DNA from: Acidobacteriota bacterium | Lineage (GTDB): Bacteria > Acidobacteriota > Terriglobia > UBA7540 | Length of the DNA: 64,000 nt | Direction: 5' to 3' | Assembly (NCBI GenBank): GCA_021838785.1 | Contig: JAKCCV010000004.1 | Span: forward strand, 83,537 to 147,536 | Shown: one piece after another, positions 6,345-54,501 of the stretch | Numbering within the stretch: the stretch's first letter is position 1 | Layout of the letters: the number at the start of each line of letters is the position of its first letter | The notes under the pieces: generated by a model | The model's database searches: none | Told to the model about the DNA's origin: nothing | What the model saw: only the letters and a program-made list of their open reading frames with translations | Translations under genes and position numbers: made by a program

Positions 6345-6875
6345 ATGTCCGCTCGCCGCAAGCCCCCCAGCAAGACCTGGCGACGCGTCGCCTGGATGGC
6401 GGCACTGGCCGTGGCGTTTCCCCTCCTGGCTCGCTCGGCGAGGCCGCCCGCGATGCGGCGAAAGATTGAAGCGCGCACGCCGCCCGCCCGTCTTGCGCGC
6501 CAAACTCGCGCTCGCCCCATAGTCCGTCGCGTCGTTCGCCGGCCGTATGTCCGCCGCGTCGTCCGGCGTCGCTGGTGGGGCCCTCATCTCGAGCCGCATC
6601 GCGTCCGGCAAATCCAACGCGCGCTCATCCAAGCCGGCTATCTCACGGGCCAGCCCACCGGCGTGTGGGACCAAGCCACCACCGACGCCATGCGCCGCTA
6701 TCAAGCCGCTAACGGCTTTGATGTTACCGGCCTGCCGGAAGCCAAGCCGCTCATGAAGCTCGGCCTCGGTCCGCATCCCTTGCCGCCCGGCGTGCCCGCC
6801 GCCACCCCCGCCGACGTGGACCCGAACCCCCCTGCCGACATCCCCAATCCCCCCGCCCACGCTTCCCGCCGCTAA
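6345..6875 (+). CDS. peptidoglycan-binding (PG_binding_1-like) domain protein
   Basis: Signal/anchor, Arg-rich linker, then VRQIQRALIQAGYLTGQPTGVWDQATTDAMRRYQAANGFDVTG, typical of the PG-binding repeat. Starts 7 nt after the htrA stop. Confidence 0.7.
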   Translation: MSARRKPPSKTWRRVAWMAALAVAFPLLARSARPPAMRRKIEARTPPARLARQTRARPIVRRVVRRPYVRRVVRRRWWGPHLEPHRVRQIQRALIQAGYLTGQPTGVWDQATTDAMRRYQAANGFDVTGLPEAKPLMKLGLGPHPLPPGVPAATPADVDPNPPADIPNPPAHASRR

Positions 6876-7171
6876 CGCTGTTTGGGCCGGCCTCAACCTG
6901 CGTCACGGCCGGTTGCTCGACGTGGGCCGGTGAATCGTCGTGGCCAAGGTTTTTTCCCATGCGCCACCGTTGACAGGAGAATGGGTTGGCGCGGGCCGTC
7001 CCTCGACCCAGGAACCACCGCCTAAAATCGTGTCGCACGGTCTCCTGCCTCCAGTACTTTCGTACTATGGCCTCGGCGGCGCGAGCGCTTAAAATCGGCG
7101 TATCGAAAGGGGTTGCTTTTCGCTCGGAAGCGCGCTACAGTGGCGCAATTAACGAAGGCAGGGAGGGCTTT

Positions 7172-39625: not shown

Positions 39626-39887
39626 CGAGAAACATGTTAGGGCTATTCTCCGAGCCGTGTCAATTTCAAGGGTGCCAGCAGATCTTTCACGTTAGGATGC
39701 GTCTTCACAGTTGGAGGCTCCCGTTGGCGGTCAGGTGATGTTCGTGCCGCATCGCTCCGCGTGCAGGAGTTATCTTCCAACCGCACCGGCGACAACGCGG
39801 AGACGAGCCGTTACAATAGCGGGCGCTCGGGTCGAGCGGCTGGGCCTGATCTTGGGTCGGAGTTCCTTCACCGGGCCGCGCAAGCTC

Positions 39888-42344
39888 ATGCATTCTGAAA
39901 CCCTGCCACCAAGACGCCCAAGCAATTACCTGGATAATGCCGTGGCCATTCAAAGGGTTCAACTCAGGGTAGAAATCGTCAGGCTCTTGCTGTCGGCGAT
40001 CGCGCTGCTAACGCTCGTGGCCGTGGTGACGGGGCTTGCTCGGGCATCGCAACCGGGCAATGCAGTTCGGAGGGTTGGCAAAAAGCTTGCGAAGGCAGGA
40101 AGCAAAGAATCGCTGCCATTAAGAGGGGAGGTGCGCGACCCGACGGGCGCGGCTGTCGTCGGGGCTCAAGTGGTTTTCAAGTCAGCACGCTTTTCCGCGC
40201 AGACCACCACCGACCGCCGGGGACAATTCTTCTTTCGCTCGATACCGGCGAGGAACGGCATTGTGACCGTGACTACCAGCGGCTTTCGGACGACCCGGAA
40301 ACCTTGGAGCGGGAGGAGCCGCGAACCGCTGGCCATCACGCTCGAGCCGGCGCTGTTGCGGCAAACGGTAACGGTGACGGCGACGCGCACGCCAACGCCG
40401 CTTGGCCAAACCGCCGCCGATGTGCTGGTGTTGACGCCTGAAGAGGTCGCCACAGCGCCGGCTTTAACACTCGATGACATGCTGCGGCAGATTCCCGGCT
40501 TCACCCTGTTCCGCCGCTCTGGCAGCCGGACCGCCAATCCGACCTCGCAGGGCGTCTCGCTGCGCGGCGTGGGTGCAAGCGGCGCGAGCCGGGCGTTGGT
40601 GATGGCGGACGGCATTCCCCTCAACGACCCCTTTGGCGGCTGGGTTTATTGGGACCGCGTGCCGCGCGCTGCCGTCGAGCGAGTGGAGGTGGTGCGCGGC
40701 GGGGCGTCAGACCTCTACGGAACCACGGCCATGGGCGGAGTTGTCAATTTTATTACCCGCAAGGCAAGCCATCCCGGATTGACGCTGGACACCTCGTACG
40801 GCAACGAAGACACGCCGGACGCTTCCCTGTGGACAGGCGTGAGCTTCGGTGCTTGGAACGCCGCGCTCTCGGCAGAGGCCATGAGCACGGAGGGCTACAT
40901 TCTGGTCGCGCCGAACGAGCGAGGTCGCGTGGACACGCCGGCGGGCCAGGAGCATGAAACGGCGGATTTTCGACTGGAGCGCCGATTTTCAAGCGCCGGA
41001 AGCCTTTTTGGCGAAGCTTCCATCTTCCGCGAAACGCGAGACAACGGGACGCCGCTCACTTACAATCGAACCCACTTGCGGCAGCTCGTTTTCGGAGCCC
41101 ATTGGGCGACGGCCGAAGCGGGCGTGTTCTCGCTTCACGCCTACGGCGGACCGCAACTGTTCGACCAAACGTTTTCGGCGGTCGCGGCCAACCGCAATAG
41201 CGAGAGCCTGGTGGATAGCCAGCGCGTGCCGGCTCAGCAAGTCGGCCTCGACGCGCAATGGTCGCGCGCGCTGGGGTCGCGCCAGACGCTCGTGGCGGGT
41301 TTCGACGCAAGCCAAGTGCGCGGCGCCAGCGATGAAATCTCTTTCTTCCATGGCCGCGCCACGCGAGCGACGGGCTCCGGCGGACGGCAACGCAACGTGA
41401 GCGTTTTTGGAGAAGACATCCTCCAGCTTACCCCGCGATGGAGGGCCACCCTCGCGGCACGGCTGGACGATTGGAAAAATTTCGACGCGCTTTCCACCAC
41501 TCGTCCGCTCTCCACCGCGGGTCCGGTGACGGTGATTCGTTTCCCGGAGCGCATCGAATCCGCCTTTAGCCCTCGCGTGGCAACGCTTTATCGGCTGACG
41601 CGGCGTGTTTCGCTGACGGCGTCGGCTTACCGCGCCTTCCGCGCTCCCACGCTCAACGAGCTTTACCGGAATTTCCGCGTCGGCAACGTGGAGACGCTGG
41701 CGAATTCCGCGCTGACCGCCGAGCGGCTGACCGGCGCCGAAGCCGGAGCGGAATGGAGCGCGTTTCACCGTAAGCTTAGCGCGCGCGGAACTTTTTTCTG
41801 TAGCGATATTTCCGATCCCATCGCCAACGTGACGCTGAGCGTGACGCCCAGCCTCATCACCCGCGAGCGGGAAAACCTGGGCCGAACGCGTTCGCGCGGC
41901 TTTGACCTGGACGTCATGTCGCCCCTCTCCCGAACGCTTTCTCTCGAGGCCGGCTATGAGCTGGCGGACTCGACCGTCGTCAGTTTTCCCGCCGAGCCGG
42001 CCCTGGTGGGACGGCGAGTGCCGGAAATTCCACGCAATTCGTTCAGCTTTCAGGCGCTTTACTCGAACCCTGCGGCGGGCAAGAGTCTTCAACGCTGGAT
42101 TGTTTCTGTTCAAGGACGATTTACCGGCATGGCGTTTGACGATGATCTCAACACTCTTCCGCTCGGCAGCTTCTTCACCGTGGATGCTTACCTTGCCCGA
42201 CCGCTGGCCCGTCAGGTTGAAGCCTACGTGGCGGCTGAAAACCTGAACGACAGCCGGTACGCCATCGCGCGGACGCCCGTGCTTGAGGTCGGGCCACCCA
42301 CGCTGGTGCGAGCAGGCATCCGAATTAATTTGAGCTGGCGCTAG
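39888..42344 (+). CDS. TonB-dependent receptor with CarboxypepD_reg-like N-terminal domain
   Basis: LRGEVRDPTGAAVVGAQVVF...GIVTVTTSGF (regulatory fold). Plug (TPEEVATAPALTLDDMLRQIPGF, RGASDLYG). Barrel ending VRAGIRINLSW. Start uncertain (TTG 39711 or ATG 39888). Confidence 0.85.
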   Translation: MHSETLPPRRPSNYLDNAVAIQRVQLRVEIVRLLLSAIALLTLVAVVTGLARASQPGNAVRRVGKKLAKAGSKESLPLRGEVRDPTGAAVVGAQVVFKSARFSAQTTTDRRGQFFFRSIPARNGIVTVTTSGFRTTRKPWSGRSREPLAITLEPALLRQTVTVTATRTPTPLGQTAADVLVLTPEEVATAPALTLDDMLRQIPGFTLFRRSGSRTANPTSQGVSLRGVGASGASRALVMADGIPLNDPFGGWVYWDRVPRAAVERVEVVRGGASDLYGTTAMGGVVNFITRKASHPGLTLDTSYGNEDTPDASLWTGVSFGAWNAALSAEAMSTEGYILVAPNERGRVDTPAGQEHETADFRLERRFSSAGSLFGEASIFRETRDNGTPLTYNRTHLRQLVFGAHWATAEAGVFSLHAYGGPQLFDQTFSAVAANRNSESLVDSQRVPAQQVGLDAQWSRALGSRQTLVAGFDASQVRGASDEISFFHGRATRATGSGGRQRNVSVFGEDILQLTPRWRATLAARLDDWKNFDALSTTRPLSTAGPVTVIRFPERIESAFSPRVATLYRLTRRVSLTASAYRAFRAPTLNELYRNFRVGNVETLANSALTAERLTGAEAGAEWSAFHRKLSARGTFFCSDISDPIANVTLSVTPSLITRERENLGRTRSRGFDLDVMSPLSRTLSLEAGYELADSTVVSFPAEPALVGRRVPEIPRNSFSFQALYSNPAAGKSLQRWIVSVQGRFTGMAFDDDLNTLPLGSFFTVDAYLARPLARQVEAYVAAENLNDSRYAIARTPVLEVGPPTLVRAGIRINLSWR

Positions 42345-42800
42345 ACGGTTTACCGCCTGTGCTGAGTAAGCCGATCACCATCAATAACTTGCGAGATGTG
42401 AGCGCTTGCCGGCCGCATCCGGGCCGCGGCAGTGCGACGGCTGGCACAACGCAAGAATCATGCCGCGGCCACAAGGGCCATCGCGCACAGGTTGCCGGTA
42501 CGTGACACGTAGTCGCGACGGTGTTGTTTCCGTCGCGGGTATGTTGGGAAGCGTTGTGGAAGCGCCCGCGACACAGAGAGCAGTGCCGCGGCTACCAGCT
42601 TCCCCTCCGATCGCGGCAGAGATGAATGCGTCGGTTTGGAGCGTTTCCGTCCCAAGGGATCGGCGTTCCGCGGGCAATGCAGATGGCTGGTCATGCCTCC
42701 TCTCGAGTGTCATGATGGCCCCTCCTGAACGGCCTAGCCGGATTATATCAGGATTCATATTTCGGGGAAGGGAACCGCATAGAGAGGTCCCCGCCTCAAC

Positions 42801-42830
42801 TTGACAATGCGCAACGCCTCTCGATAGCAT
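42801..42830 (+). promoter_or_regulatory. sigma-70-like promoter motif upstream of the lipid cluster
   Basis: TTGACA (42801-42806), 18-nt spacer, TAGCAT (42825-42830). About 230 nt upstream of the 43064 start. Confidence 0.35.
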
Positions 42831-43063
42831 ACGAAACGGTGCGCTGCCCACAGCCAAGCGAGCGCGTTTCCGTGGTGAGTGTCAAAAGGGTGAGCCCGAG
42901 CCGGTGGGCGAAACGGCGGCTTTGCGTCGTTATTCTATTCCAGAGGACACTCCCGAGGGAGTCGGCGGCGTGAGGCTACAAGGATGCCGTCGGCGGACGT
43001 GGCGCGGCGAACCCGCGACATCCCTTCGATTCCCTACGAGGCCCCAGTGCGTGAGGTTAGCTC

Positions 43064-44605
43064 GTGACCGACGTCGGCGAAGCCTTCCGTCAAAATGAAA
43101 TCCTGCTGACCGGCTCCAACGGCTTTCTGGGCAAAGTTGTTTTGGGGCTGCTGCTCGACCGTTATCCTCATCTCAAGCATGTTCATTTGTTGCTCCGTCC
43201 GGGAACCTATCCGAGCGCGGCCGAACGGTTTGAGCATGAGGTTCTGGAATCGCCCGCCTTGGTGGCGGTTGTCGAGCGATTAGGTCGAGCTCACCTCCGA
43301 AAGAAGGTCACGGTGTGGGAAGGAGACCTGGGGGAGGAGGATGCGGGGCTTTCTGCCGATGATCTCGAACGCCTACGTGGGCGGATTCAGGTGATTATCA
43401 ACTGCGCCGGAAAGGTGGATTTCTTCCCGCCCGTGGATGAGTCGCTTCGCGCCAATGTGGAAGGCGTCGAGCACGTGGTCGGGCTGACCAAGAAACTCGG
43501 CGCCAAGCTGGTTCACGTCTCCACGTGTTTTGTCGCCGGCGAAGCCGAGGGCTTGATTGAGGAAAGTGATGCAATTCTCGGCTTTTATCCTCGCCGACGC
43601 GATGGGCGCGACCTCAGTTTCGACCACCGACGAGAAATCGAATATTTGCGCGATCAAATTCGTTTGATTGAAGAGAGCGCGGCGGGAGCCCCGCATCTCA
43701 AAGAATCGCGTGAGCGGCGGGTGGCGCTGGGGCGGCGGCGTGCGGAGCATTGGGGGTGGGTGAACACTTACACCTACACCAAAAGCCTGGGTGAGCAGAT
43801 CATCGCTTCCGATCCGGATCTCGATTGGGCCATCGTGCGGCCGGCCATTGTGGAGAGCGCGTTGCGGTTCCCCTTTCCAGGCTGGATCGAAGGGGGGCGC
43901 ACGGCCGCGCCTTTGGTCTTGATGGCGCTTGGAGGAATGAAGCATTGGCCGGTGCGCCGCGACACGCCGCTCGAGGTGGTGCCGGTGGATTTGGTGGCCG
44001 CGGCCCTGCTGGTCGTGGCCGCCACGGTGCTGTGCGGGCGCCATGAGCGGGTTTATCAGTTGGGCACGGCGGACGTTCATCCCATCCGTTTGGGCCCGCT
44101 GGTCCATTTGCTGGTCCGAGAATCGCAGCGACGCAACCGTGGCAACGGCGGCGTCTCCCGGATGTTCCGCTGGTGGGTGGGCGCAGGTCCGGCGCGGATA
44201 GTTACGGCCTCGGAGATGCGTCGCCGGCGCGAACGTTTTGAGCGGCGCCTCCGCAAAATTCAGAATCTGCTGGAGGGGATGAACCGCATGGCGCGCACGG
44301 CCAGCCTGCCGGGCCGGCGTTCGCTGTTCCAACTGACCTCGAAGCTGCGCACCCTGGAATTGCAGGCCAAGTTCCGCGAGCAAACCCTCGACCAGTATCT
44401 TCCCTTCGTGTTGCACAATCGCTATATCTTTGAGTCAGAGAACATCCGCGCCGCCTACGCTCGGCTCACGCCGCGTGACCGCGAATTGCTTCCGTGGGAT
44501 CCGGAGCACATCCACTGGAAGAAGTATTGGGTGGAGCATCAAATCGAAGGCATTGAGAAGTGGGTGCAGCCGGAAGCGGTCAAGGAGTGGGCGTTCAAGA
44601 TATAA
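43064..44605 (+). CDS. fatty acyl-CoA/ACP reductase-like SDR (NAD_binding_4 / male-sterility type)
   Basis: ILLTGSNGFLGKVV (Rossmann GxxGxxG), HVHLLLRP, VSTCFV, YTYTKSLGE (YxxxK). C-terminal helical extension. GTG start. Confidence 0.8.
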   Translation: MTDVGEAFRQNEILLTGSNGFLGKVVLGLLLDRYPHLKHVHLLLRPGTYPSAAERFEHEVLESPALVAVVERLGRAHLRKKVTVWEGDLGEEDAGLSADDLERLRGRIQVIINCAGKVDFFPPVDESLRANVEGVEHVVGLTKKLGAKLVHVSTCFVAGEAEGLIEESDAILGFYPRRRDGRDLSFDHRREIEYLRDQIRLIEESAAGAPHLKESRERRVALGRRRAEHWGWVNTYTYTKSLGEQIIASDPDLDWAIVRPAIVESALRFPFPGWIEGGRTAAPLVLMALGGMKHWPVRRDTPLEVVPVDLVAAALLVVAATVLCGRHERVYQLGTADVHPIRLGPLVHLLVRESQRRNRGNGGVSRMFRWWVGAGPARIVTASEMRRRRERFERRLRKIQNLLEGMNRMARTASLPGRRSLFQLTSKLRTLELQAKFREQTLDQYLPFVLHNRYIFESENIRAAYARLTPRDRELLPWDPEHIHWKKYWVEHQIEGIEKWVQPEAVKEWAFKI

Positions 44606-44752
44606 TAAGGCGAAGTGCCGGGAGGCTGCTGCGTCGAGTGAAATGAGGCTGAGGCAGGGCGTTTCACGGTGGGCAGCGACGGCGGAGGCGGGCGCATCAA
44701 GGCCTGCTCGGCGCGGCGGGTAACCGCCCGAAACCTTAGAGGGCGAGATTCC

Positions 44753-47572
44753 ATGCCCACGGAAGTTCATTCCACGGACACGGCGACGGTCGAAGGTCAA
44801 GTTCTGGAAATTGTCCGCCAGTTGTTGACCGAACTGGGCTCAACCCGCGCCGCCGAGACCGCGACGCTCGACTCCTCGCTCGAACGCGACCTGGGATTGG
44901 GCAGCCTGGAGCGAGTTGAGCTTCTTGTTCGCTGTGAACGGCGCTTGGAGGTTCGGGTTTCTGACGAGGCTCTTCAACGCGCCGAAACCCCGCGCGAATG
45001 GGCCAAAGCCATCCTGTCCCGGACAGGCGCTCCTTCCGCCGCGAGCCGTTATCGCATCGCGCAACCCTCGCGCCTGCCTCCTTCGGCTCCGGAGACCGCC
45101 CAGAATTTGGTGGAGGTGCTTCGTCACCACGCCGGCATTGACCCGGAGCGCGTCCATGCCCATCTGCTGGAGGGCGACTCCGGCCAAGATATTTCCTACC
45201 GCCGATTGATGGAGACTGCAACGGAAGTGGCTTTGGGCCTGACGGCCAAAGGACTCGAGCGAAATGAGGCCGTGGCCATCATGTTGCCCACGTGCGCCGA
45301 CTTTCTCTACGCCTTCTTTGGCGTGATGTTGGCAGGCGGCATTGCCGTTCCTATCTATCCTCCGGCGCGCCCGGACAAAATTGAGGAATACGTGCAACGA
45401 CAAGTTGGCATCCTGCAGAATGCCGGGGTGCGGCTTTTGATTAGCTTTGGACAGGTGAAATCTATCACCGACATCCTTAAGGTTAAACTACCCTCCCTCA
45501 CAGCGGTGAGTACCGTGGAGGCGCTACGACAGGCTGGCGAACAGTCGTCGCTGCTGGGGCGGGACCCATCGGAAATCGCCTTTATCCAATACACCTCCGG
45601 CAGTACCGGCGACCCCAAAGGGGTGGTGTTAAAGCATTCGAACATCTTGGCCAACATCCGTGGGATTGGCGGAGCGGTAAAAGTTCGACCCACCGATATC
45701 GTCGTGAGCTGGCTGCCGCTTTATCACGACATGGGGCTCATCGGTGCGTGGTTGTTTAGCGTCTATTACGGACTGCCGATTACGTTGTTTTCCCCACTGG
45801 CGTTCTTGAGTCGGCCGGAGCGATGGCTTTGGGCGCTGCACGATTCGCGCGGAACCTTGTGTCCAGCGCCGAACTTTTCCTATGAGCTATGCGCCCGCAA
45901 GATTCCCGAAGCCTCCCTCCGAGGTCTGGATTTGAGCGCTTGGCGAATCGCCATCAACGCCGGCGAGGCGGTGCTGCCGGATACCTTGGAACGTTTCGCG
46001 GAACGTTTCCGCCCGTATGGCTTCCGAGCGGAGAGCTTTGTGCCGTGTTATGGTCTGGCGGAGTCATCGGTGGCCCTGGCTTTCCCGCCCATTGAGCGAC
46101 GACCGGTGATTGACCGCATTCGGCGGGATGCCTTTGAAGCGGAAGGGAAAGCGATCCCTGCGGACCCCTCCGACCCCAGCGCGTTGCGCTTTGTGGCCAA
46201 CGGTCGCCCCATGCCCGGCCATGAAATCAGAATCGTGGATGAGGCGGGGCGCGAGTTGGGCGAGCGGATTCAAGGACGCCTGCTTTTCCGGGGACCCTCG
46301 AAGACGGAGGGCTACTTCCGCAATCCCGAGGCGACGGCCGCCGTCACCACCGAAGACGGTTGGATGGATTCCGGAGATCTCGGCTACTGGGCCGACGGCG
46401 AGGTGTACATCACCGGCCGACGCAAGGATTTGATTATTCGCTCCGGGCGGAACATTGTGCCGCAAGAAGTCGAATCAGCCGCCGCCGAGGTTCCAGGGGT
46501 TCGGCGAGGTTGCGTGGCCGCTTTCGGGTCGCGCGATCCGGAGAGTGGAACCGAACGTCTGGTGGTGGTCGCCGAAACGCGAGCCGCCGCCGAAGACGAC
46601 CTTCGACGGATCGAACGCGAGATTATGGAGCACGTGGCGGCAACCATCGGCGCGCCGCCCGAGCGCGTGGAATTGGTGGCGCCGCACAGCATCCCCAAAA
46701 CCTCCAGCGGGAAGATTCGCCGCAATGAAACGCGGACTCTTTACGAGCGCAACCAACTCAAGGTGACGCGGCGCGCCCCCATCGTTCAAATTCTGCGGTT
46801 GCGACGAGAGAACCTGGGACGTTGGGCCTACCTTCGATGGCGTCAGGCGTGCGAATACGGTGCGCGACTTTATTCCAAAACCGTAGTGGCGTTCCTGGGG
46901 ATGGTAGGCGGGGTTTCCGCTCGGCTTCTGCCGCACGCTTTGGCAGCCTGGCCCGTGCGGGCTGCTGTGCGTGCGACGCTGGCTCTGACGGGCCATCGTG
47001 TGAGGACGCAAGGGCTGAATCAGTTGAACCAGGAGGGGGCAGCCTTGATCGTGGCCAACCGGGCCGGTGTGTTTGACCCGCTGGTGCTGGCGGCGATACT
47101 CTCGCGGTCGTTCGTGTTTGCAGACGCGGAAGTCCTGAGCCCCATGCCTCGCATGGCGCGATTCCTCTTGAGCGCGCTGGTCGCGCCGCCGGTTGAAGAG
47201 GTCTTGGCTCCGCCGGGTGGCACCTTGCGGCAACGCATCGCCGCGCAACTAAAGCGAGGGGAAGCCGTCGTTGTCTTTCCCGATGGGCCGGTAGCCAAGG
47301 CCGCGGGGATTAGCCGCTTCCGGCTCGATGGATTCCAGGCAGCCGCCGCGAGCTCGGCGCCGATTTATCCGGTAGCGATTCAGGGCACCGCTCCGCTGCT
47401 CGTGAGTCACGAGCGAACCGCGCTGCGCAGCGCCGTGAATGTTTCTGTGGGGAGTGCGGTCGCTGCCGCCGGAGAATCCCGCGAACTTGTGCGATGCCGC
47501 GAGCGGGTTCGCGAAGCCATTGCCCACCTGGAGCTGCAAGCGCCGGCCCCGGAGGCAAAGAGTCGGCGTTGA
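44753..47572 (+). CDS. tri-domain acyl carrier protein / fatty acyl-AMP ligase / PlsC-like acyltransferase
   Basis: N-terminal carrier domain (DLGLGSLERVELL). AMP-binding core (FIQYTSGSTGDPKGVV, YGLAESS, SGDLG, GRRKDLI, PKTSSGKIRR). C-terminal AGPAT-like domain (VVFPDGP, IYPVAIQG) with motif I reading ANRAGVFD. Confidence 0.85.
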   Translation: MPTEVHSTDTATVEGQVLEIVRQLLTELGSTRAAETATLDSSLERDLGLGSLERVELLVRCERRLEVRVSDEALQRAETPREWAKAILSRTGAPSAASRYRIAQPSRLPPSAPETAQNLVEVLRHHAGIDPERVHAHLLEGDSGQDISYRRLMETATEVALGLTAKGLERNEAVAIMLPTCADFLYAFFGVMLAGGIAVPIYPPARPDKIEEYVQRQVGILQNAGVRLLISFGQVKSITDILKVKLPSLTAVSTVEALRQAGEQSSLLGRDPSEIAFIQYTSGSTGDPKGVVLKHSNILANIRGIGGAVKVRPTDIVVSWLPLYHDMGLIGAWLFSVYYGLPITLFSPLAFLSRPERWLWALHDSRGTLCPAPNFSYELCARKIPEASLRGLDLSAWRIAINAGEAVLPDTLERFAERFRPYGFRAESFVPCYGLAESSVALAFPPIERRPVIDRIRRDAFEAEGKAIPADPSDPSALRFVANGRPMPGHEIRIVDEAGRELGERIQGRLLFRGPSKTEGYFRNPEATAAVTTEDGWMDSGDLGYWADGEVYITGRRKDLIIRSGRNIVPQEVESAAAEVPGVRRGCVAAFGSRDPESGTERLVVVAETRAAAEDDLRRIEREIMEHVAATIGAPPERVELVAPHSIPKTSSGKIRRNETRTLYERNQLKVTRRAPIVQILRLRRENLGRWAYLRWRQACEYGARLYSKTVVAFLGMVGGVSARLLPHALAAWPVRAAVRATLALTGHRVRTQGLNQLNQEGAALIVANRAGVFDPLVLAAILSRSFVFADAEVLSPMPRMARFLLSALVAPPVEEVLAPPGGTLRQRIAAQLKRGEAVVVFPDGPVAKAAGISRFRLDGFQAAAASSAPIYPVAIQGTAPLLVSHERTALRSAVNVSVGSAVAAAGESRELVRCRERVREAIAHLELQAPAPEAKSRR

Positions 47573-47625
47573 ATCGGTAAGCAACGGGTCATGGGCTCCA
47601 GAACGCCCCTCGCCCGCGGAGACTC

Positions 47626-48279
47626 ATGTCTGAGAACTCATTTTGCGTCCTTTTGATGCCTCATCTCCTGAGCGGATTGATCCTCCGGCTGGCTGTCTGT
47701 TTTCTGCTCGGCTCAATCCCCTTTGCGGTGATTTCGATGGCGGGGAGCGGCCTCGACATTCGCCAAGTCGGATCGGGCAACCCGGGGTTCAACAACGTCC
47801 TGCGGGTTTCAAAATGGCGCGCGGTGTTGACGCTGGTGGGGGACATGGGCAAAGGCGTGCTCGCCGTATGGCTGGCGCTCGAAGCTTGGCCGCTGCCTGG
47901 CCTGGGCGCTGCCCGGATGCCGCTCGGTTGGTTGTTTGGCTTTGCCGCCATTTTGGGCCATTGTTACTCTCCGTTTTTGAAGTTCAATGGCGGCAAAGGC
48001 GTAGCCACCTCCGGTGGAGTGATGTTGGTTCTTTACCCACCGTGGGCCGTGGTGGCGCTCGCTTATTTCGTCGTGGTTCGCATTGCGCTCGGCAAACTGC
48101 ATTGGCGCGAGGCCGGGGCAACCACCTCCATCACCACCTGGGTTCTTTTTACTTTGCTGATGTTCTTTGCCGTGGGGCGGATGGATGGCGCCTACGCGGC
48201 GCTCATGACCCTGTTTTTGGCCTGGCGACACAAGAAAAATTTCCTAAACCTGTTCACCCCGACACCTGAGAAAACTTGA
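47626..48279 (+). CDS. plsY: glycerol-3-phosphate acyltransferase PlsY
   Basis: LLGSIPFAV, GSGNPGFNNVLR, GDMGKGVLAV, ILGHCYSPFLKFNGGKGVATSGG. Start may be the internal ATG at 47656. Confidence 0.9.
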   Translation: MSENSFCVLLMPHLLSGLILRLAVCFLLGSIPFAVISMAGSGLDIRQVGSGNPGFNNVLRVSKWRAVLTLVGDMGKGVLAVWLALEAWPLPGLGAARMPLGWLFGFAAILGHCYSPFLKFNGGKGVATSGGVMLVLYPPWAVVALAYFVVVRIALGKLHWREAGATTSITTWVLFTLLMFFAVGRMDGAYAALMTLFLAWRHKKNFLNLFTPTPEKT

Positions 48280-48316
48280 TGCTGACCGTTTCCCAGCATC
48301 CGCTCTCCTATCTTGG

Positions 48317-48997
48317 ATGGACACCACGAAGCGTTTAGCCTTTTATGACTTTGACGGTACCTTGAGCTCGGGAAACGTGGTGCGGCGCTACGCGTATTTT
48401 TGCCTGCGCCAACCGTCGCGGGGACGAGCAGCCTTCAAGTTTTCCAAGCTTTTGCTAACGATTCCGGCGTGGCTGGTGCTGGACCTTCGCTCGCGTCGCC
48501 ATTTCAACCAAGTGTTCTACCGTGAGTATCGGGGGCTTCGAGAAGAATGGTTGCACGCCCAATCGGAACGGCTGTTTGAGGACGTGGTGCGGCCCAGCCT
48601 CTATCCCGGTGCCACCGAATTGATTGCTCGGGATCGGTCGGAGGGTTACCGACCCGTTCTGGTTTCGGGCGAACTCGACTTTGCTTTGGACCGCGTGGTA
48701 CGCTACCTTGGATTTGAGGGAGTCATCTGCAATTCCCTTGAATTCAAGGACGGCGTTGCGACCGGGCAGGTCGTGCCGCCTCTTATCGCAGAAGAGAAAA
48801 AGGTAGCGGCCATGCGACGCTACGCGGATGCTCAAAGGGCAAAACTGGAAGAGGCCAAAGCCTATTCCGACAGCTTCTCCGACCTGCCAATGCTGAAAGC
48901 GGTTGGCCATCCGACGGCGGTTAATCCCGACCGGCGCTTGCGTCGAGTGGCCGAGGCGAGCGGTTGGCCTATTATCTCTCTACAAAAAGCACCATGA
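48317..48997 (+). CDS. HAD-IB family hydrolase (SerB/phosphatase-like)
   Basis: LAFYDFDGTL (DxDxT), VLVSGELDF, AYSDSFSDLPML (motif IV DxxD). Confidence 0.8.
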   Translation: MDTTKRLAFYDFDGTLSSGNVVRRYAYFCLRQPSRGRAAFKFSKLLLTIPAWLVLDLRSRRHFNQVFYREYRGLREEWLHAQSERLFEDVVRPSLYPGATELIARDRSEGYRPVLVSGELDFALDRVVRYLGFEGVICNSLEFKDGVATGQVVPPLIAEEKKVAAMRRYADAQRAKLEEAKAYSDSFSDLPMLKAVGHPTAVNPDRRLRRVAEASGWPIISLQKAP

Positions 48998-50700
48998 CAA
49001 ACCCCATGCCCGAAGGCGAGAATTTCCTCTTTGCCGAGCCGACACCGAACGCCGTCGGCCGCCGGGCTTTGGTCTCCCATGACGGCTGTGTGGTCCATCT
49101 CGAAGAGCGTTCGGCGCCGCGCTTGATGTGGTACGGCGAGGATTTGTGGAGTGTCCCATTTCCCCCCGGCACGCGGGTGATGTACCCGAACCCCACCATT
49201 CCGGGACTCCCTGACCGCGACGGCGCGATTCGCTACGCGCTGGCCCATCCGGAGGAGATGGAACCTCTGGAATCACTGTTGAAACCCGGCATGAAAGTAA
49301 CCATCGCGATGGACGATATCTCGCTGCCACTGCCCAAAATGCGGCGACCTGACCTGCGCCAATCCATCCTCACCATTTTGCTCGACATGTTGGCCGCCAG
49401 GGGCGTCGAAGATGTTCACCTGATCATCGCCACCTCGTTCCATCGGCGGATGTCAGCGGCGGAGATTCGTTACGTGGTTGGCTCCCGGATTTTTAACGCC
49501 TACTATCCCGAACGTCTCTACAATCATGATGGCGAAGCTCCGGGAGGCATGGTCGAGCTGGGTGTGACGGAGCACGGCGAACGCGTCCGCATCAATCGCC
49601 GCGCCGCCGAGTCGGACATCCTCATTTACGTCAACCTCAACCTGGTGCCGATGGATGGCGGGTCAAAATCGGTCGGTGTGGGCCTGTGCGACTATCCCAC
49701 GCTCCAAGCGCACCACACGCCCCAAACCATCCTCCACTGCGATTCCTACTTCGATCACCGCCGCTCTGAGATGAAACGGTCCTGCGACCGCATCGGAAAG
49801 ATCGTCAACCAGAACCTCAAAGTGTTTCAGATCGAGACGGTGATCAACAACTGCATGTTCGATCCCCGCATGGCGTTTTTCACCAAGAACGAAGACCGCT
49901 GGAATGTCGTTGATCGCGGCATGTTCCATGCGACGCGCCATACCCTGGCGCGGCTGTCGCGCTCGGCCAAACGGAAGCTGCTGTTCGCCGTGCCCGCCGC
50001 CTACCAAATGATTGCTATTCACGCCGGTCAGACGGAGGCTGTGCATGAAAAATCGCTTGCCTATTGCTACGCACAGTATTGCTGCCCTCTGAAGGGGCAG
50101 TCGGATGTGCTGGTGTACGGCATCCCGTTCATTTCGCCTTACAATGTCAATTCCATTCTCAATCCTCTGCTCGTGCAGGTGATGGCGCTAGGATATTTCC
50201 ACAACATGTACCGCGGCAGGCCGGTGGTCCGGAAGAACGGCGTTTTGATCATCACCCATCCCCTTTATGATGAATTCGATCCGCTGCACCATCCTTCGTA
50301 TATCGAATTCTTCCATCGGCTCCTGCCGGAGACGCGCGATTCCTTCGAGCTGCAGCGGAAGTACGAAGAACAATTCGCTCACGACCCGGACTACATCCGC
50401 ATGTACCGCACCGGCAACGCTTACCACGGCGTCCATCCGTTTTATATGTGGTACTGGGGCGAGAACGGCCGCGCCCACGTGGGCAAGGTCATCTGCGTGG
50501 GCGCGGAATCCAAGCGCGCCGCAGAATTGATGGGATGGGAGACAGCGCCCAACATGAATGAGGCGCTAGCCATGGCGGAATCCCACGTGGGCCACAAACC
50601 CAGCATCACCCTGATGCACTTCGCCCCGATTATGATGGCGGATGTTGAAGGGTCGCCAGAAGGCGCGGAAGCCCGGTTACCTCAACCAACGGGAAGATGA
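48994..50700 (+). CDS. LarA-like (lactate racemase N-terminal domain, DUF2088) protein
   Basis: KVTIAMDDISLPLP, HLIIATSFHR and LIYVNLNLVPMDGGSKS resemble the LarA N-terminal domain pattern. The ATG at 48994 overlaps the HAD stop (ATGA). The family call is from memory only. Confidence 0.6.
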   Translation: MTNPMPEGENFLFAEPTPNAVGRRALVSHDGCVVHLEERSAPRLMWYGEDLWSVPFPPGTRVMYPNPTIPGLPDRDGAIRYALAHPEEMEPLESLLKPGMKVTIAMDDISLPLPKMRRPDLRQSILTILLDMLAARGVEDVHLIIATSFHRRMSAAEIRYVVGSRIFNAYYPERLYNHDGEAPGGMVELGVTEHGERVRINRRAAESDILIYVNLNLVPMDGGSKSVGVGLCDYPTLQAHHTPQTILHCDSYFDHRRSEMKRSCDRIGKIVNQNLKVFQIETVINNCMFDPRMAFFTKNEDRWNVVDRGMFHATRHTLARLSRSAKRKLLFAVPAAYQMIAIHAGQTEAVHEKSLAYCYAQYCCPLKGQSDVLVYGIPFISPYNVNSILNPLLVQVMALGYFHNMYRGRPVVRKNGVLIITHPLYDEFDPLHHPSYIEFFHRLLPETRDSFELQRKYEEQFAHDPDYIRMYRTGNAYHGVHPFYMWYWGENGRAHVGKVICVGAESKRAAELMGWETAPNMNEALAMAESHVGHKPSITLMHFAPIMMADVEGSPEGAEARLPQPTGR

Positions 50701-50951
50701 GCAACCCGCAAGCTCTGGTCTGGCTGTGAGGCAGTAATGAATAACTCACATGAAATGTGAAGGAGAAGGTAGATTCCTTATGCAGGGCAATTCGGTGTAT
50801 GCGACTGCGGTCGAAAAGCTCCGTAAGGCTCATGAAGAGTGGAAAAAGGATCCTGAGACTATTTCCCAGCTCCTTGACGCCAAGGAAAGATGAAGTGCTC
50901 CCCAAAATTTGGACAGGCGTCTAAGGTGTAAAATCGCTGCCTCCGAGAGGA

Positions 50952-51133
50952 GGCAAAAAGAAGCGAGCATACATTCAGTACAGCCCCGAGGGGAAAGCCA
51001 AGATTGACCTGGAGGCAATTAAAGGTCAGCAGACGATTCAGCAGATTGCCTCGCATTACGAATTCATCCGAACCTGGTGACCCACTGGAAGAAGCAGTTG
51101 CTGGAGGGGGCGGCGGAGATTTTCGCCAACGGC
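50952..51133 (+). pseudogene. IS3-family transposase orfA fragment (frameshifted and truncated)
   Basis: GKKKRAYIQYSPEGKAKIDLEAIKGQQTIQQIASHYE, then after a 1-nt frameshift IHPNLVTHWKKQLLEGAAEIFANG. This matches the conserved IS3 OrfA HTH region (...EYGVHPNQVSxWKKQLLEGAAExF). It breaks off at about 51133. Confidence 0.65.
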
Positions 51134-51134
51134 C

Positions 51135-51449
51135 CGGCAGCAGCGTCGTGCGCCGCAACTTGTCGTGATCGTTCAAATCTTCATAGCCCAACGCTAGCGC
51201 ATAGACACGCTGCGCGACTAACTCCCACACCGTGTGCCCGATCTGCTCCGCCGCGCGATGGTCTCGAAAGCAGTCCGCGAAACGCGCCATGATCCTCGTC
51301 TGCTGCTCTACCTCGCGCCGCAGCAGCCCGGCCGCGTCCGTCGTGATCTCCCCGCCGTCAAACCGGCCTCGCACCTCGCCTTGAAAGTGGGGATGAAATT
51401 GGAAGGATGCTTGGTTACACTGCCTCGCCGATCGCCCAGAACCGGCCAT
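51135..51449 (-). mobile_element. IS1380-family transposase N-terminal fragment (about 100 codons). The IS 5' end probably extends toward ~51740.
   Basis: RFDGGEITTDAAGLLRREVEQQTRIMARFADCFRDHRAAEQIGHTVWELVAQRVYALALGYEDLNDHDKLRR matches the conserved IS1380 N-terminus. No DDE domain follows. It abuts the IS3 fragment. Confidence 0.6.
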
Positions 51450-51746
51450 GGATGGTCGCCTGAAAACCGGCGAACGAAGATCATCTCTGGGACATTCACA
51501 CCGGCGAGAGGGTCATTACTCTCAATCGGCAGGGCCGATGTCTTGAGTGAAGATAAAGAACAGCAAGTTATCGCTTTGGGAATGCCTCGGCTTGTGGAAT
51601 CGAGTTTAATTTTCAATTTTCCATTGGCTCGAGCTTCAATCTGGACCGTCCGCTGTGTTTTCCGGTGATCGCAACAGAGCCGTCGGCTGACATGAAAAGA
51701 GCAGAGGATGAAGAACGGATGCCGACCGCGCAAGGTTGGATCGGAA

Positions 51747-52763
51747 TTAGTTTGAGGCCGGCGGATAATAGCCGCGTCGCGCTTGAACCTTGTAACCCCG
51801 CTCGCGAACCCGGACGGTAATTTTGCGGAAGCCGCCGTCCGGCCGGGTGTCGGTAGGAGTATAGCCGAGCAGATATTGGGTGCGGAGTTCGTTGGCAATT
51901 TCCTCAAAGGCAGCGTGAGTATTCCGGATTTTATTGACGCGAATCATCCGCCCGCCGGTTTCCGACGACAATCGCTTCAGAACGGAAAGGCCGCTGAAGC
52001 CCATTCCCATCGAGCCATAAAAAGCGCGGTCCACAATCGCAATCGAGTAAATGATCACGTTGGCTTTTTGCGCGGCCTCGATCGCCGCCCGGAGCGTCTC
52101 ATGGCTGCCGGCGTCTTCGCCGTCGGTCAGCAGAATCATGACCCTGCGACCGACTTGACGGGCGAGCAATCTCCGCGAAGCAAGGTAGATGGCATCATAA
52201 AGCCGCGTGCAACACGGCGCCGAGGTCGAAGGAAAGGTTCCGGGCAAAGGACCGCCGCCGCTTCCGCCTCCATTGATCACCGTAGAGTTAATGGCGCGCG
52301 TCAGCAGGGAAGTTTCCGCCGTGAAGTCTTGCAATAGTTCGACCACGAGATCGAAATGCACCACGCATGCCAGATCCTTGGGCCCGAGGACTTGGCGAAC
52401 GAAGGCATCCGCCTCCCGCTGCTCAACGCCCAGCACCCGCTCCTGACTGGGGCTGGTGTCCACCATGATGCAGAGCGTGAGCGGGATATTGGTCTCTTTG
52501 GAGAAGTAAGTAATCTTCTGGGGCTTTCCATCTTCAAATATTTCAAAGTCGTTTTTGGAAAGATTGGGAATGAGCTCGCCGTGTTGGTTGCGCACCACCG
52601 CGTACACATTGACCACTTCGGTGGTGACCTTGATGGTGGGCGTCGTCGTGGTCGGCTGCTGCGCGCGCGCCGAAGGCAGCACGGCGAGAACGCTCAGGCA
52701 GACGATGAGTCGCGGAATGCAATCTTCTAGGATCCGCTTCTCACCCAGATGATGGCGCCTCAT
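51747..52763 (-). CDS. VWFA-related (Acidobacterial-type) von Willebrand factor A domain protein
   Basis: Signal peptide, beta-sandwich region (VVNVYAVVRNQHGELIPNLSKNDFEIFEDGKPQKITYF), then a VWA region (LCIMVDTSPSQ MIDAS-like, ILLTDGEDAGS). ATG at 52763. Confidence 0.85.
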   Translation of the reverse strand: MRRHHLGEKRILEDCIPRLIVCLSVLAVLPSARAQQPTTTTPTIKVTTEVVNVYAVVRNQHGELIPNLSKNDFEIFEDGKPQKITYFSKETNIPLTLCIMVDTSPSQERVLGVEQREADAFVRQVLGPKDLACVVHFDLVVELLQDFTAETSLLTRAINSTVINGGGSGGGPLPGTFPSTSAPCCTRLYDAIYLASRRLLARQVGRRVMILLTDGEDAGSHETLRAAIEAAQKANVIIYSIAIVDRAFYGSMGMGFSGLSVLKRLSSETGGRMIRVNKIRNTHAAFEEIANELRTQYLLGYTPTDTRPDGGFRKITVRVRERGYKVQARRGYYPPASN

Positions 52764-52912
52764 GGAAGGTTCCTCTCTTTGTCTCAAACTTAGATGCAAA
52801 ATCCGACGCGGAGCGCCGCCTCTTCATCCTCATGGGGTCGCCTGCGCTTGCCCGACCAGGCGCGCAAGTCATCCCTATCGTCGGATTTTGATTTTTCAAA
52901 CTCACTTTCCTC

Positions 52913-52941
52913 TTGACAAGAACAGCGCGTCTCACTATACA
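52913..52941 (+). promoter_or_regulatory. sigma-70-like promoter of a micro-transcription unit
   Basis: TTGACA (52913-52918), 17-nt spacer, TATACA (52936-52941). Confidence 0.45.
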
Positions 52942-53005
52942 TGATGCTGTAAACGCGCTCCGCCAGCTTAGCTGGCGAGAACTCAAGAACTGAGAGGAGA
53001 ATAGA

Positions 53006-53044
53006 ATGGCAGCGAAGAAGAAAGCCAAGAAAAAGAAGAGGTAA
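53006..53044 (+). CDS. 12-codon poly-lysine micro-ORF (MAAKKKAKKKKR)
   Basis: GAGGAGA 5 nt upstream of the ATG. The stop lies 26 nt before a strong intrinsic terminator. Too short for the ORF track. Coding status is unproven. Confidence 0.35.
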   Translation: MAAKKKAKKKKR

Positions 53045-53070
53045 GTTCCTCAAGCAAGTTCGGTACGGCA

Positions 53071-53106
53071 CTTCGGGGATGCAGCAATGCATCCCCGAAG
53101 TTTTTT
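53071..53106 (+). terminator. intrinsic terminator
   Basis: Perfect stem cttcggggatgca/tgcatccccgaag with a GCAA tetraloop, followed by TTTTTT (53101-53106). Confidence 0.75.
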
Positions 53107-53154
53107 GGAGACGAAAGGAAATCCCAATTCAACTTTCTAAACTTCGTCACCCTA

Positions 53155-54501
53155 TCACTCCTCTTGCTCGCGGGAGGGGGGTAAAGCGCGGGTCGTCCTT
53201 TCGACTTGGCCCAGCGGCGGAATGTCATCCGCCGTCGTCGCCTTCAATTCCCGGAATCTCCGAACGCTCGGCAGCACCTGGTGCTCGAGCGATCCCACGA
53301 CGCGATTCCATGCATCCACCGCTTTGTCGATCGCGGAGCGCAGCGTGTCCAGGTGTTCCCAAAGGGTGTAGACCCTTTTGTATAGCTGCTTGCCGAGATC
53401 GCTGATTGCTTCGGCATTCTTCGCAATTTCTTCCTGCCGCCATCCGTGATACACAGCCAGCAATAGGGCAATCAACGTATTGGGCGTCGCAATCACCACG
53501 CGCCGCGCCATCCCGTCCTCGATCAGCGTGGGATCGCGTTCCACCGCCGCGCCCAGAAAGGGGTCGCCCGGCAGAAAGAGCACGGCAAACTCCGGGGCCT
53601 TGGGCAGGCGGTCCCAGTAAGCCTTTGAACCCAGTTGTTCCATGTGGCGGCGGACCTGCGCCGCATGGCGCGCGAGGTGTTGCTGCTTCATTTCATCGGA
53701 CGAAGATTCGATCGAATCCAGGTAAGCATCGAGCGCGACTTTGGAATCCACGATAATCTCGCGGTCTCCGGGCAGGTGAACGATCATGTCCGGGCGGATG
53801 GTGCCCTCGTCCGGTGAGGAAACGGTATGCTGCTCGAGGAAATCACAGCGATCGACCATTCCCGAAAGCTCCGCCAATCGGCGAAGCGTCACCTCACCCC
53901 AGCGGCCGCGAACTTGGGGTTTTCGGAGCGCCGTGACCAGATTGGCGGTTTCGCGCTGGAGCTGGGTTTGGGCTTCGCCGAGCTGAGACAGGTGCTGCTT
54001 CAACGACCCGTAAGCTTCCTTCCGGCTCGTCTCGATTTCCTTGATTTCGTTTTCATACCTTTGCAGCGCCTCTTTGAGCGGTTGCAAGAGGCCATCCATC
54101 GCTTCCTGCCGCTTGCCCAAGTCTCCCTCCGCCTCAGCCCGTAGCTTGCCGAAGGTTTCGCTGGCGAGTTGAAGGAAAGATTCGCTTTGGGAGCCGAGCA
54201 CTTCGCTCGAAAGAGATTTGAACGTGTCACCCAGTTTTTGCCGCGCCTCATCGAGCAATTGTCGTTGCTCCTCCAAATTTTTGCGCGTGGCGTCCAGTGA
54301 CGCTTCCGCGGCCGACCTGGCCTTGAGTTCCGTTTCGAGCCTCGCCCGCAGACCTTCGGTTTCCTGGTGGTCCTTTTCGTTTTGCTCCCGCAACCCTTTC
54401 GCCGTTGCCTCCGCCGCCGCGGCACGACTCCTGGTGAGCAGCCAGCCGGCGATGCCGCCGAGGAATAAGCCGGTGAGGAGCAGCAGCCAGTCGCTAATCA
54501 T
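53155..54501 (-). CDS. rmuC: DNA recombination protein RmuC
   Basis: N-terminal TM helix, long coiled coil, then the conserved C-terminal nuclease-like domain (RGRWGEVTLRRLAELSGM, DMIVHLPGDREIIVDSKV, FAVLFLPGD). Confidence 0.9.
   Translation of the reverse strand: MISDWLLLLTGLFLGGIAGWLLTRSRAAAAEATAKGLREQNEKDHQETEGLRARLETELKARSAAEASLDATRKNLEEQRQLLDEARQKLGDTFKSLSSEVLGSQSESFLQLASETFGKLRAEAEGDLGKRQEAMDGLLQPLKEALQRYENEIKEIETSRKEAYGSLKQHLSQLGEAQTQLQRETANLVTALRKPQVRGRWGEVTLRRLAELSGMVDRCDFLEQHTVSSPDEGTIRPDMIVHLPGDREIIVDSKVALDAYLDSIESSSDEMKQQHLARHAAQVRRHMEQLGSKAYWDRLPKAPEFAVLFLPGDPFLGAAVERDPTLIEDGMARRVVIATPNTLIALLLAVYHGWRQEEIAKNAEAISDLGKQLYKRVYTLWEHLDTLRSAIDKAVDAWNRVVGSLEHQVLPSVRRFRELKATTADDIPPLGQVERTTRALPPSREQEE

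Follow-up and report, generated by a model that had tools for sequence, protein, structure and literature searches.

The five genes studied here lie at positions 43064-50700 of a 64,000-nucleotide stretch of DNA, referred to below as the window, from a bacterium of the phylum Acidobacteriota with a genome of 3.42 Mb that is 98% complete. An earlier note on this DNA had described five clustered genes on one strand that resemble a split ElbD-type ether-lipid system. All five open reading frames (ORFs) of 43064-50700 are present in the ORF list at the expected coordinates, intact and on the plus strand, and the gene functions named in the note match those obtained by Pfam and NCBIfam profile searches, by which domains were assigned to the ORFs of the window. 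The genes (g1 to g5) and the domains of g2, which include an acyl carrier protein (ACP), are as follows.

43064..44605, plus strand: g1, stand-alone fatty acyl reductase of the ElbD type, 513 amino acids; NAD_binding_4 and Sterile domains
44753..47572, plus strand: g2, ACP, probable fatty acyl-AMP ligase (FAAL) and degenerate acyltransferase-like domain, 939 amino acids; PP-binding, AMP-binding and Acyltransferase domains
about 44849-45013, plus strand: ACP of g2 (Pfam PP-binding)
about 45131-46714, plus strand: ligase of g2 (Pfam AMP-binding)
about 46997-47380, plus strand: acyltransferase-like domain of g2 (Pfam Acyltransferase)
47054..47077, plus strand: motif I of the acyltransferase-like domain, ANRAGVFD, with Arg where the catalytic His of HX4D is expected; motif III is FPDGP
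47626..48279, plus strand: g3, divergent PlsY (PlsY*)
48317..48997, plus strand: g4, HAD-IB phosphatase, ElbB orthologue, DxDGT motif
48994..50700, plus strand: g5, LarA-superfamily protein (Lar_N), ElbC orthologue of the single-histidine nickel-pincer type

The longest ORF of g2 begins with GTG at 44669. The most likely start is ATG at 44753, giving a product of 939 amino acids, because the product called in the genome collection begins there and GAGGG lies upstream. The successive intergenic gaps from g1 are 147, 53 and 37 nt. The stop codon of g4 and the start codon of g5 overlap as ATGA at 48994-48997, and the coupling of the LarA-like gene to the HAD gene that had been pointed out earlier can thus be read directly in the sequence.

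The elbB-elbE operon of Myxococcus xanthus was described by Lorenzen et al. 2014, as reviewed in PMC9131029, and is MIBiG entry BGC0000871, as named in preprint 10.64898/2026.06.23.733905. In M. xanthus, elbD and elbE are required for ether lipids, and elbC is described as a gene of unknown function (PMC9131029). The published domain order of ElbD, reductase, ligase, ACP and acyltransferase (PMC9131029), matches that of the proteins retrieved in this work. The elb reference used here is the operon of a metagenome-assembled genome (MAG) of Myxococcaceae, not that of strain DK1622. This operon and one from an Acidobacteriota MAG read HAD / Lar_N / ElbD / short-chain dehydrogenase/reductase (SDR), i.e. 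elbB-elbC-elbD-elbE.

The relation of the window's locus to elb goes beyond generic domain matches. The g4 product is 44% identical to the HAD protein of the Myxococcaceae operon, ElbB, over 218 of 226 amino acids (E 2e-65) and 42-47% identical to the HAD proteins of acidobacterial elb clusters. The g5 product shares 53% identity with the Lar_N protein ElbC over 529 amino acids, g1 aligns along its whole length with the N-terminal reductase domain of ElbD at 37% identity, and an ElbE orthologue (46% identity) is encoded elsewhere in the same genome. As judged by these alignments, the homology of the locus to elb genes is firm. The HAD and LarA-type genes, which the earlier note had counted as additions to the ElbD domain set, are themselves core elb genes (elbB and elbC).

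The g1 product matches Pfam NAD_binding_4 with 171 bits as well as Sterile, and contains a TGxxGxxG nucleotide-binding motif and a YxxxK motif. A query in which g1 and g2 were concatenated retrieved proteins of 1400-1700 amino acids from Myxococcota and some Acidobacteriota with the order reductase, ligase, ACP, acyltransferase. Among 1.84 billion representative proteins, the top relatives of g1 outside its own clade were mostly ElbD-type proteins of 1000-1700 amino acids, which ranked above ordinary fatty acyl reductases (FARs) of 500 amino acids. In a tree rooted at the midpoint only, the g1 clade was nested inside the ElbD-reductase clade with 90-99% SH-aLRT support, and was set apart from 33 generic FARs with 99% support. 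By its sequence relationships, g1 is hence assigned as a reductase of the ElbD type. A phylum-wide search for the reductase (150 genomes, E 1e-60) found no stand-alone reductase, the threshold being too strict for the reductase domains of fused ElbD proteins, whose clusters were therefore inspected individually.

The g5 product scores 811 bits with the NCBIfam equivalog NF052592 ('NPN-dependent hydroxyacid isomerase, LarAH14/15/16 family'), above the cut-off of 740, and myxobacterial ElbC passes this model as well. When aligned to PDB 9q2u, g5 keeps the first catalytic His (in FHRR), the cofactor-binding Lys (in GGSKS) and the Ni-binding His (the second His of AHH). The latter two align with Lys195 and His211 of LarASp (PMC12611868), and all three residues are invariant in 19 g5 orthologues. 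Because in the same alignment the position of the second catalytic His is occupied by Val, and racemisation requires two His residues, a racemase function of g5 appears unlikely. The Val residue fits the absence of the second catalytic histidine from LarAH groups 14 and 15 (PMC12611868) and the suggestion that single-histidine enzymes of the LarA type may move hydride instead of racemising (PMC7583248). An AlphaFold2 model of g5 (pLDDT 80, pTM 0.83) has the two-domain LarA fold, and its top 19 Foldseek matches are without exception structures of the LarA family, led by 9q3k with a TM score of 0.84. The larB, larC and larE genes are present in the genome on the separate contigs C36, C38 and C28. 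Three more LarA-family genes occur in the same genome at C22:2282-2881, C28:90195-90752 and C1:33547-34032. In the searchable literature, no paper was found that contains both 'ElbC' and 'lactate racemase', and none that ties ether lipids to the nickel-pincer cofactor.

The myxobacterial ElbE query detected the 46% identical SDR gene on contig C20, the next match scoring 36 bits. There, an SDR of 330 amino acids is followed by a lipid kinase of the YegS/Rv2252/BmrU family (315 amino acids), and this relocated pair is intact at 6730-8729 on the minus strand (L171). The best NCBIfam match of the SDR is HpnA-like and falls under the cut-off. In relatives, the gene for the ElbE-type SDR lies directly downstream of the LarA gene and that for the lipid kinase is next, an adjacency seen in 9-11 of 18 relatives. 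As the SDR and kinase genes follow LarA there, the unit in this bacterial order therefore consists of seven genes. The corresponding site in the window is the following.

50701..51746, strand not applicable: gene-poor stretch with transposase remnants after g5; site of the ElbE-type SDR and lipid kinase genes in relatives

The stretch holds only transposase fragments, including an N-terminal fragment of DDE_Tnp_1_4 at 50859-51449 on the minus strand. A rearrangement, deduced from gene order only and possibly mediated by an insertion sequence (IS), has probably split the cluster and moved the SDR and kinase genes away. A comparison of the IS remnants after g5 with the DNA upstream of the SDR gene on C20 found no sequence in common. 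The SDR-kinase pair on C20 adjoins genes for a Ser/Thr kinase and a PP2C phosphatase.

The best NCBIfam matches of the g2 ligase are FAAL models (PRK09192, 457 bits), under the curated cut-off of 600. The acyltransferase domain gives a Pfam PF01553 match of 41 bits, yet neither the HX4D nor the FPEGT motif is kept. Arg is found at the position of the HX4D His in 16 of the 18 g2 orthologues, and motif III is variable in this clade. Median identity among these 18 proteins is 72% in the ligase, 59% in the ACP and 45% in the acyltransferase-like domain, which is the fastest-evolving and least conserved part of g2. From the state of its motifs, we read the g2 acyltransferase as catalytically dead.

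In ElbD, the domain order is FAR-ligase-ACP-acyltransferase, the ligase is of the acyl-CoA-ligase type and HX4D is intact, as compared with ACP-FAAL-acyltransferase in g2. The identity of g2 to ElbD ligases is 24-29%, and that to fused acidobacterial ElbD proteins is 24-27% in the ligase. Given its domain order, ligase subfamily and low identity, g2 was rejected as the partner of g1 in a split ElbD. The interpretation as a split ElbD-type system stands for the reductase, which is of the ElbD type and stand-alone, and falls for g2, which by its domain order, its ligase and its lost His is not the remainder of ElbD.

The relatives of g2 are found instead in a widespread family of stand-alone ACP-FAAL-acyltransferase proteins from many phyla, to which g2 is 36-48% identical over its full length. 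A scan of the genome collection with an alignment of g2 homologues recovered only this distant clade, at 39-48% identity, and did not reach the close clade. In the widespread clade, NH is kept in 66 of 66 proteins and FPEG in 59 of 66. At 80 loci of this family, none of the neighbouring genes encoded a reductase, PlsY, HAD or LarA, and no neighbour family was conserved. Three genomes of the sister family of the window's family hold both paralogues, i.e. a protein of the g2 type and one of the widespread type.

The proteins encoded at these 80 loci (L016-L095), of about 900-950 amino acids with NHxxxxD and FPEG intact, are apparently uncharacterised. They were found in Pseudomonas, Marinobacter, Methylocystis, Cupriavidus, Entotheonella, Nitrospira and others. 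The protein may be an Aas-like enzyme of fatty-acid salvage with a built-in carrier.

The g3 product matches Pfam PlsY with 136 bits and TIGR00023 with 119.8 bits, below the cut-off of 137.2. It is the sole PlsY in the host genome, present in single copy; PlsX is encoded elsewhere, and three other PlsC-type genes are present. Two types of PlsY were distinguished among 41 relatives. The canonical type (Pfam 172-195 bits) has the motifs GSGxxGATN and GHxFPVW and a C-terminal GTE tail. The cluster type, PlsY* (Pfam 113-138 bits), has the motifs GSGNPGFNN and GHC(Y/F/W)SPF (GHCYSPF in g3 itself), an insertion of 6 amino acids and no GTE tail. Every PlsY motif is systematically changed in g3, as compared with canonical PlsY of the same family of organisms. 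Identity of g3 is 32-40% to canonical PlsY of its own organism family and 61-67% to the in-cluster PlsY of relatives.

Of the 24 genomes with the stand-alone reductase, 23 have PlsY*, the one exception being a genome that is 57% complete; among the 16 other genomes examined, which lack this reductase, none has it. Most carriers of PlsY* have lost canonical PlsY, both types occurring together in only three genomes, and the cluster-less genomes of the window's family have canonical PlsY only. No match at the level of PlsY* was found in a phylum sample of 150 genomes, and no PlsY was found within 9 kb of clusters with fused ElbD. We infer that PlsY* replaces the acyltransferase domain of ElbD and that the ligase-ACP module is accessory.

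Of 24 genomes sampled from the window's family, 16 have a close orthologue of g2 (57-79% identity), and so do all four genomes of the sister family. The 150-genome sample of the phylum yielded none, its best match reaching 47%. PlsY is next after g2 in 18/18 relatives and the reductase is immediately upstream in 16/18; HAD follows in 14/18 and LarA in 12/18, most loci without the full order being contig ends. The relatives are 53-80% identical to the window's genes for g1, 57-79% for g2, 56-78% for g3, 56-76% for g4 and 69-86% for g5, which makes g5, the LarA gene, the best conserved of the five. Across the 41 relatives, the cluster genes are nearly all jointly present or jointly absent. The five-gene arrangement is not due to chance, its order being kept in 18 genomes of two families of one acidobacterial order.

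One relative, G183, carries a variant cluster on contig C3 (L172, 7330-14044) that reads HAD / LarA / stand-alone reductase / SDR / lipid kinase, with PlsY* directly after on the opposite strand. This cluster has no ligase-ACP-acyltransferase gene and appears to stand midway between the fused elb operon and the gene order seen in the window.

Given these findings, it is rather probable that the locus represents a form of the bacterial elb ether-lipid cluster specific to this order, ether product included, and an alkyl ether lipid as product of the cluster is favoured to about the same moderate degree. A product of the branched glycerol dialkyl glycerol tetraether (brGDGT) type is putative. The chemical steps outlined below, as well as the ether product, are deduced from the homologies, synteny, co-occurrence and state of catalytic motifs that were computed here.

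The ancestral unit would have comprised seven genes encoding the reductase, the ACP-FAAL protein with its dead acyltransferase, PlsY*, ElbB, ElbC, the ElbE SDR and the YegS-type lipid kinase. In the window's genome, the rearrangement marked by IS remnants would have put the ElbE and kinase genes on another contig. FAAL is predicted to adenylate a free long-chain fatty acid and to load its own N-terminal ACP, and the reductase would then turn the acyl thioester into a fatty aldehyde or alcohol. PlsY* would provide the acylated glycerol-phosphate backbone in place of the ElbD acyltransferase domain, the counterpart of which is presumed dead in g2. ElbC and ElbE would perform the remaining steps to 1-O-alkyl-glycerol-3-phosphate, and the HAD phosphatase and lipid kinase would interconvert alkyl(acyl)glycerol and its phosphate.

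ElbC is a candidate for the ether-forming enzyme. A more far-reaching proposal, which taken as a whole we regard as improbable though worth stating, is that ElbC/g5 forms the ether bond, or converts an ester to an ether, without AGPS by transient hydride abstraction at C2 of glycerol phosphate using its single catalytic His; that PlsY* has replaced both the ElbD acyltransferase domain and canonical PlsY, so that bulk membrane-lipid synthesis is wired through the cluster; and that these soil bacteria are candidate sources of alkyl ether lipids of the brGDGT type. If this were true, uncultured soil bacteria labelled Terriglobia would be added to the candidate producers of such lipids.

Several points weigh against an ether-lipid function. 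The ether lipid is deduced from gene content, in an order known only from labels of MAGs, and the roles of ElbB, ElbC and ElbE are biochemically unassigned even in M. xanthus, where the reductase and acyltransferase activities of ElbD also lack in vitro demonstration (PMC9131029). By sequence, g2 is not derived from ElbD. As PlsY* is the sole PlsY of the genome, it may be just the housekeeping enzyme. A sugar-acid role for g5 is conceivable too, since its NCBIfam family bears the name of LarAH15, and the protein so named is a gluconate/mannonate 2-epimerase (PMC11770544). In five relatives (G161, G164, G168, G181 and G187), the reductase and PlsY* are present but neither ElbC nor ElbE was detected at the thresholds applied, and therefore the module can exist without these two proteins. 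In these genomes, the reductase and PlsY* may function as a pair that does not need the nickel enzyme, or ElbC and ElbE may be encoded in unassembled parts. Moreover, related genomes are not independent samples, and the counts of genes and PlsY types therefore describe a pattern rather than test it statistically.

The single-copy state of g3 would also suit a housekeeping glycerolipid block, in which PlsY is a plain glycerol-3-phosphate (G3P) acyltransferase, g2 is an Aas-like salvage enzyme, and HAD and LarA act on a hydroxy- or sugar-acid phosphate, e.g. a head-group precursor. The membership of g2 in a widespread stand-alone family without conserved neighbours fits a self-contained reacylation enzyme, and characterised LarA homologues act on 2-hydroxy acids, LarAH15 being a gluconate 2-epimerase. 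However, such a block leaves no role for the reductase in salvage, the acyltransferase domain that g2 would need for salvage is degenerate, and PlsY* is divergent and confined to genomes with the stand-alone reductase. Furthermore, HAD and LarA are orthologues of ElbB and ElbC, which are linked to ElbD-type reductases in Myxococcota and several acidobacterial families. We regard this explanation as unlikely. Slightly less likely still is a pathway that makes fatty alcohols or aldehydes and ends in something other than a glycerol ether, e.g. free alcohols, wax-type esters or a different lipid derived from alcohols. The combination of NAD_binding_4 and Sterile in g1 is the architecture of alcohol-forming FARs, and the relatives that have the reductase and PlsY* without ElbC or ElbE accord with such a pathway, but g1 clusters with ElbD reductase domains and not with generic FARs, and its tight linkage to PlsY, phosphatase and lipid kinase points to a glycerol-phosphate backbone.

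A wax synthase of the WS/DGAT type, the lack of which speaks against wax esters, was not found in the 98% complete genome, nor was a CarF-type desaturase. No control genome matched either, and these negatives are weak because the controls were silent. The PlsA/Ger-type family DUF2229 (PF09989) was also not found in the genome, and in this case the Thermotoga control matched. PF06050 had been tried as a marker of PlsA/Ger and was dropped, as the Thermotoga control did not match, PF09989 being used instead.

An elb-type ether-lipid function of the locus would bear on two questions: ether-bond formation in aerobic bacteria without AGPS or PlsA/Ger, which is an unsolved problem, and the sources of acidobacterial ether lipids and brGDGTs, a long-standing question for palaeoclimate proxies. 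The elb-type genes occur here in an acidobacterial order with relatives labelled Terriglobia or Bryobacterales, by label outside subdivision 4, where they were reported before. The locus also presents a natural dissection of ElbD, in which the reductase stands alone, the ligase module is swapped, the acyltransferase appears dead and a divergent PlsY has been recruited, and it indicates which functions are dispensable or replaceable. Since the most conserved gene encodes a LarA protein of the single-histidine type and the genome has the capacity to make the nickel-pincer cofactor, the idea that lipid synthesis includes a nickel-dependent step can be tested directly.

Upstream of the cluster, a TonB-dependent receptor with an N-terminal CarboxypepD_reg domain is encoded at 39711-42344, and a 719-bp ORF-poor spacer separates it from g1.

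42345..43063, plus strand: upstream spacer, ORF-poor, with a single promoter-like site (TTGACA, 18 nt, TAGCAT) at 42801-42830

A promoter scan of 42300-51800 gave 4 promoter-like sites as compared with 2.4 +/- 1.6 in shuffled sequences, and the site is therefore weak evidence. An Rfam search of 42000-53300 matched no RNA family.

Among known proteins, LarASp and LarABw (PDB 9Q2U, 9Q3K and 9Q3J; PMC12611868) are the best sequence and fold matches of g5 and likewise lack the second catalytic His. Their identity to g5 is only 21-23%. These proteins, which have no assigned function, lie in a gene context of the glycolysis type and carry Asn at the second position, whereas g5 has Val there and a lipid gene context. 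Aas shares with g2 the logic of a ligase plus an acyltransferase, and NCBIfam models of acyl-[ACP]--phospholipid O-acyltransferase match g2 weakly. Unlike g2, Aas has the order acyltransferase-ligase and no built-in ACP. The widespread stand-alone family has the architecture of g2 and, unlike the g2 clade, keeps NHxxxxD and FPEG and has no reductase, PlsY, HAD or LarA neighbours.

The eukaryotic peroxisomal route, comprising FAR1, GNPAT, AGPS and acyl/alkyl-dihydroxyacetone phosphate reductase, shares with the window's cluster a FAR-type reductase, a backbone acyltransferase, an SDR and a phosphatase. The cluster has no AGPS flavoenzyme, and the likeness is one of logic, not of membership. A peroxisome-like logic is also part of the proposal for myxobacteria made in the review (PMC9131029).

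The elb clusters of Acidobacteria that the earlier note mentioned, and the split elbD variants, are present in the literature. Clusters of subdivision-4 Acidobacteria and the separation of reductase and ligase have been published, as have genes for a G3P acyltransferase or diacylglycerol kinase beside some elb-like clusters. Split elbD variants of Poribacteria and soil Acidobacteria are attributed to Sinninghe Damste et al. 2018, as cited in the 2026 sponge preprint. As described there, they share the reductase/ligase separation with the window's locus. The fused elb clusters of other Acidobacteriota (L175-L180) belong to the same phylum and have the same ElbB-ElbC-(ElbD)-ElbE core. Their ElbD proteins are 43-47% identical to myxobacterial ElbD over about 1450 amino acids, as compared with only 24-27% in the ligase for g2.

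Like the M. xanthus elb operon, the genome of the window encodes orthologues of ElbB, ElbC, the ElbD reductase domain and ElbE, the HAD and LarA genes are adjacent on the same strand, and there is no AGPS gene in the cluster. Unlike in M. xanthus, where ElbD is one polypeptide, the reductase is encoded by a separate gene, and the ligase-ACP-AGPAT part of ElbD is absent, an ACP-FAAL-acyltransferase protein of another family with an apparently dead acyltransferase motif being found instead. A divergent PlsY and a YegS-type kinase are further additions, and the ElbE and kinase genes are unlinked from the cluster in the window's genome. Hence, what is distinctive of this variant is the non-orthologous ligase module with its presumably dead acyltransferase, a divergent PlsY that is the only one in the genome, the linked lipid kinase and, here, the relocation of the ElbE and kinase genes.

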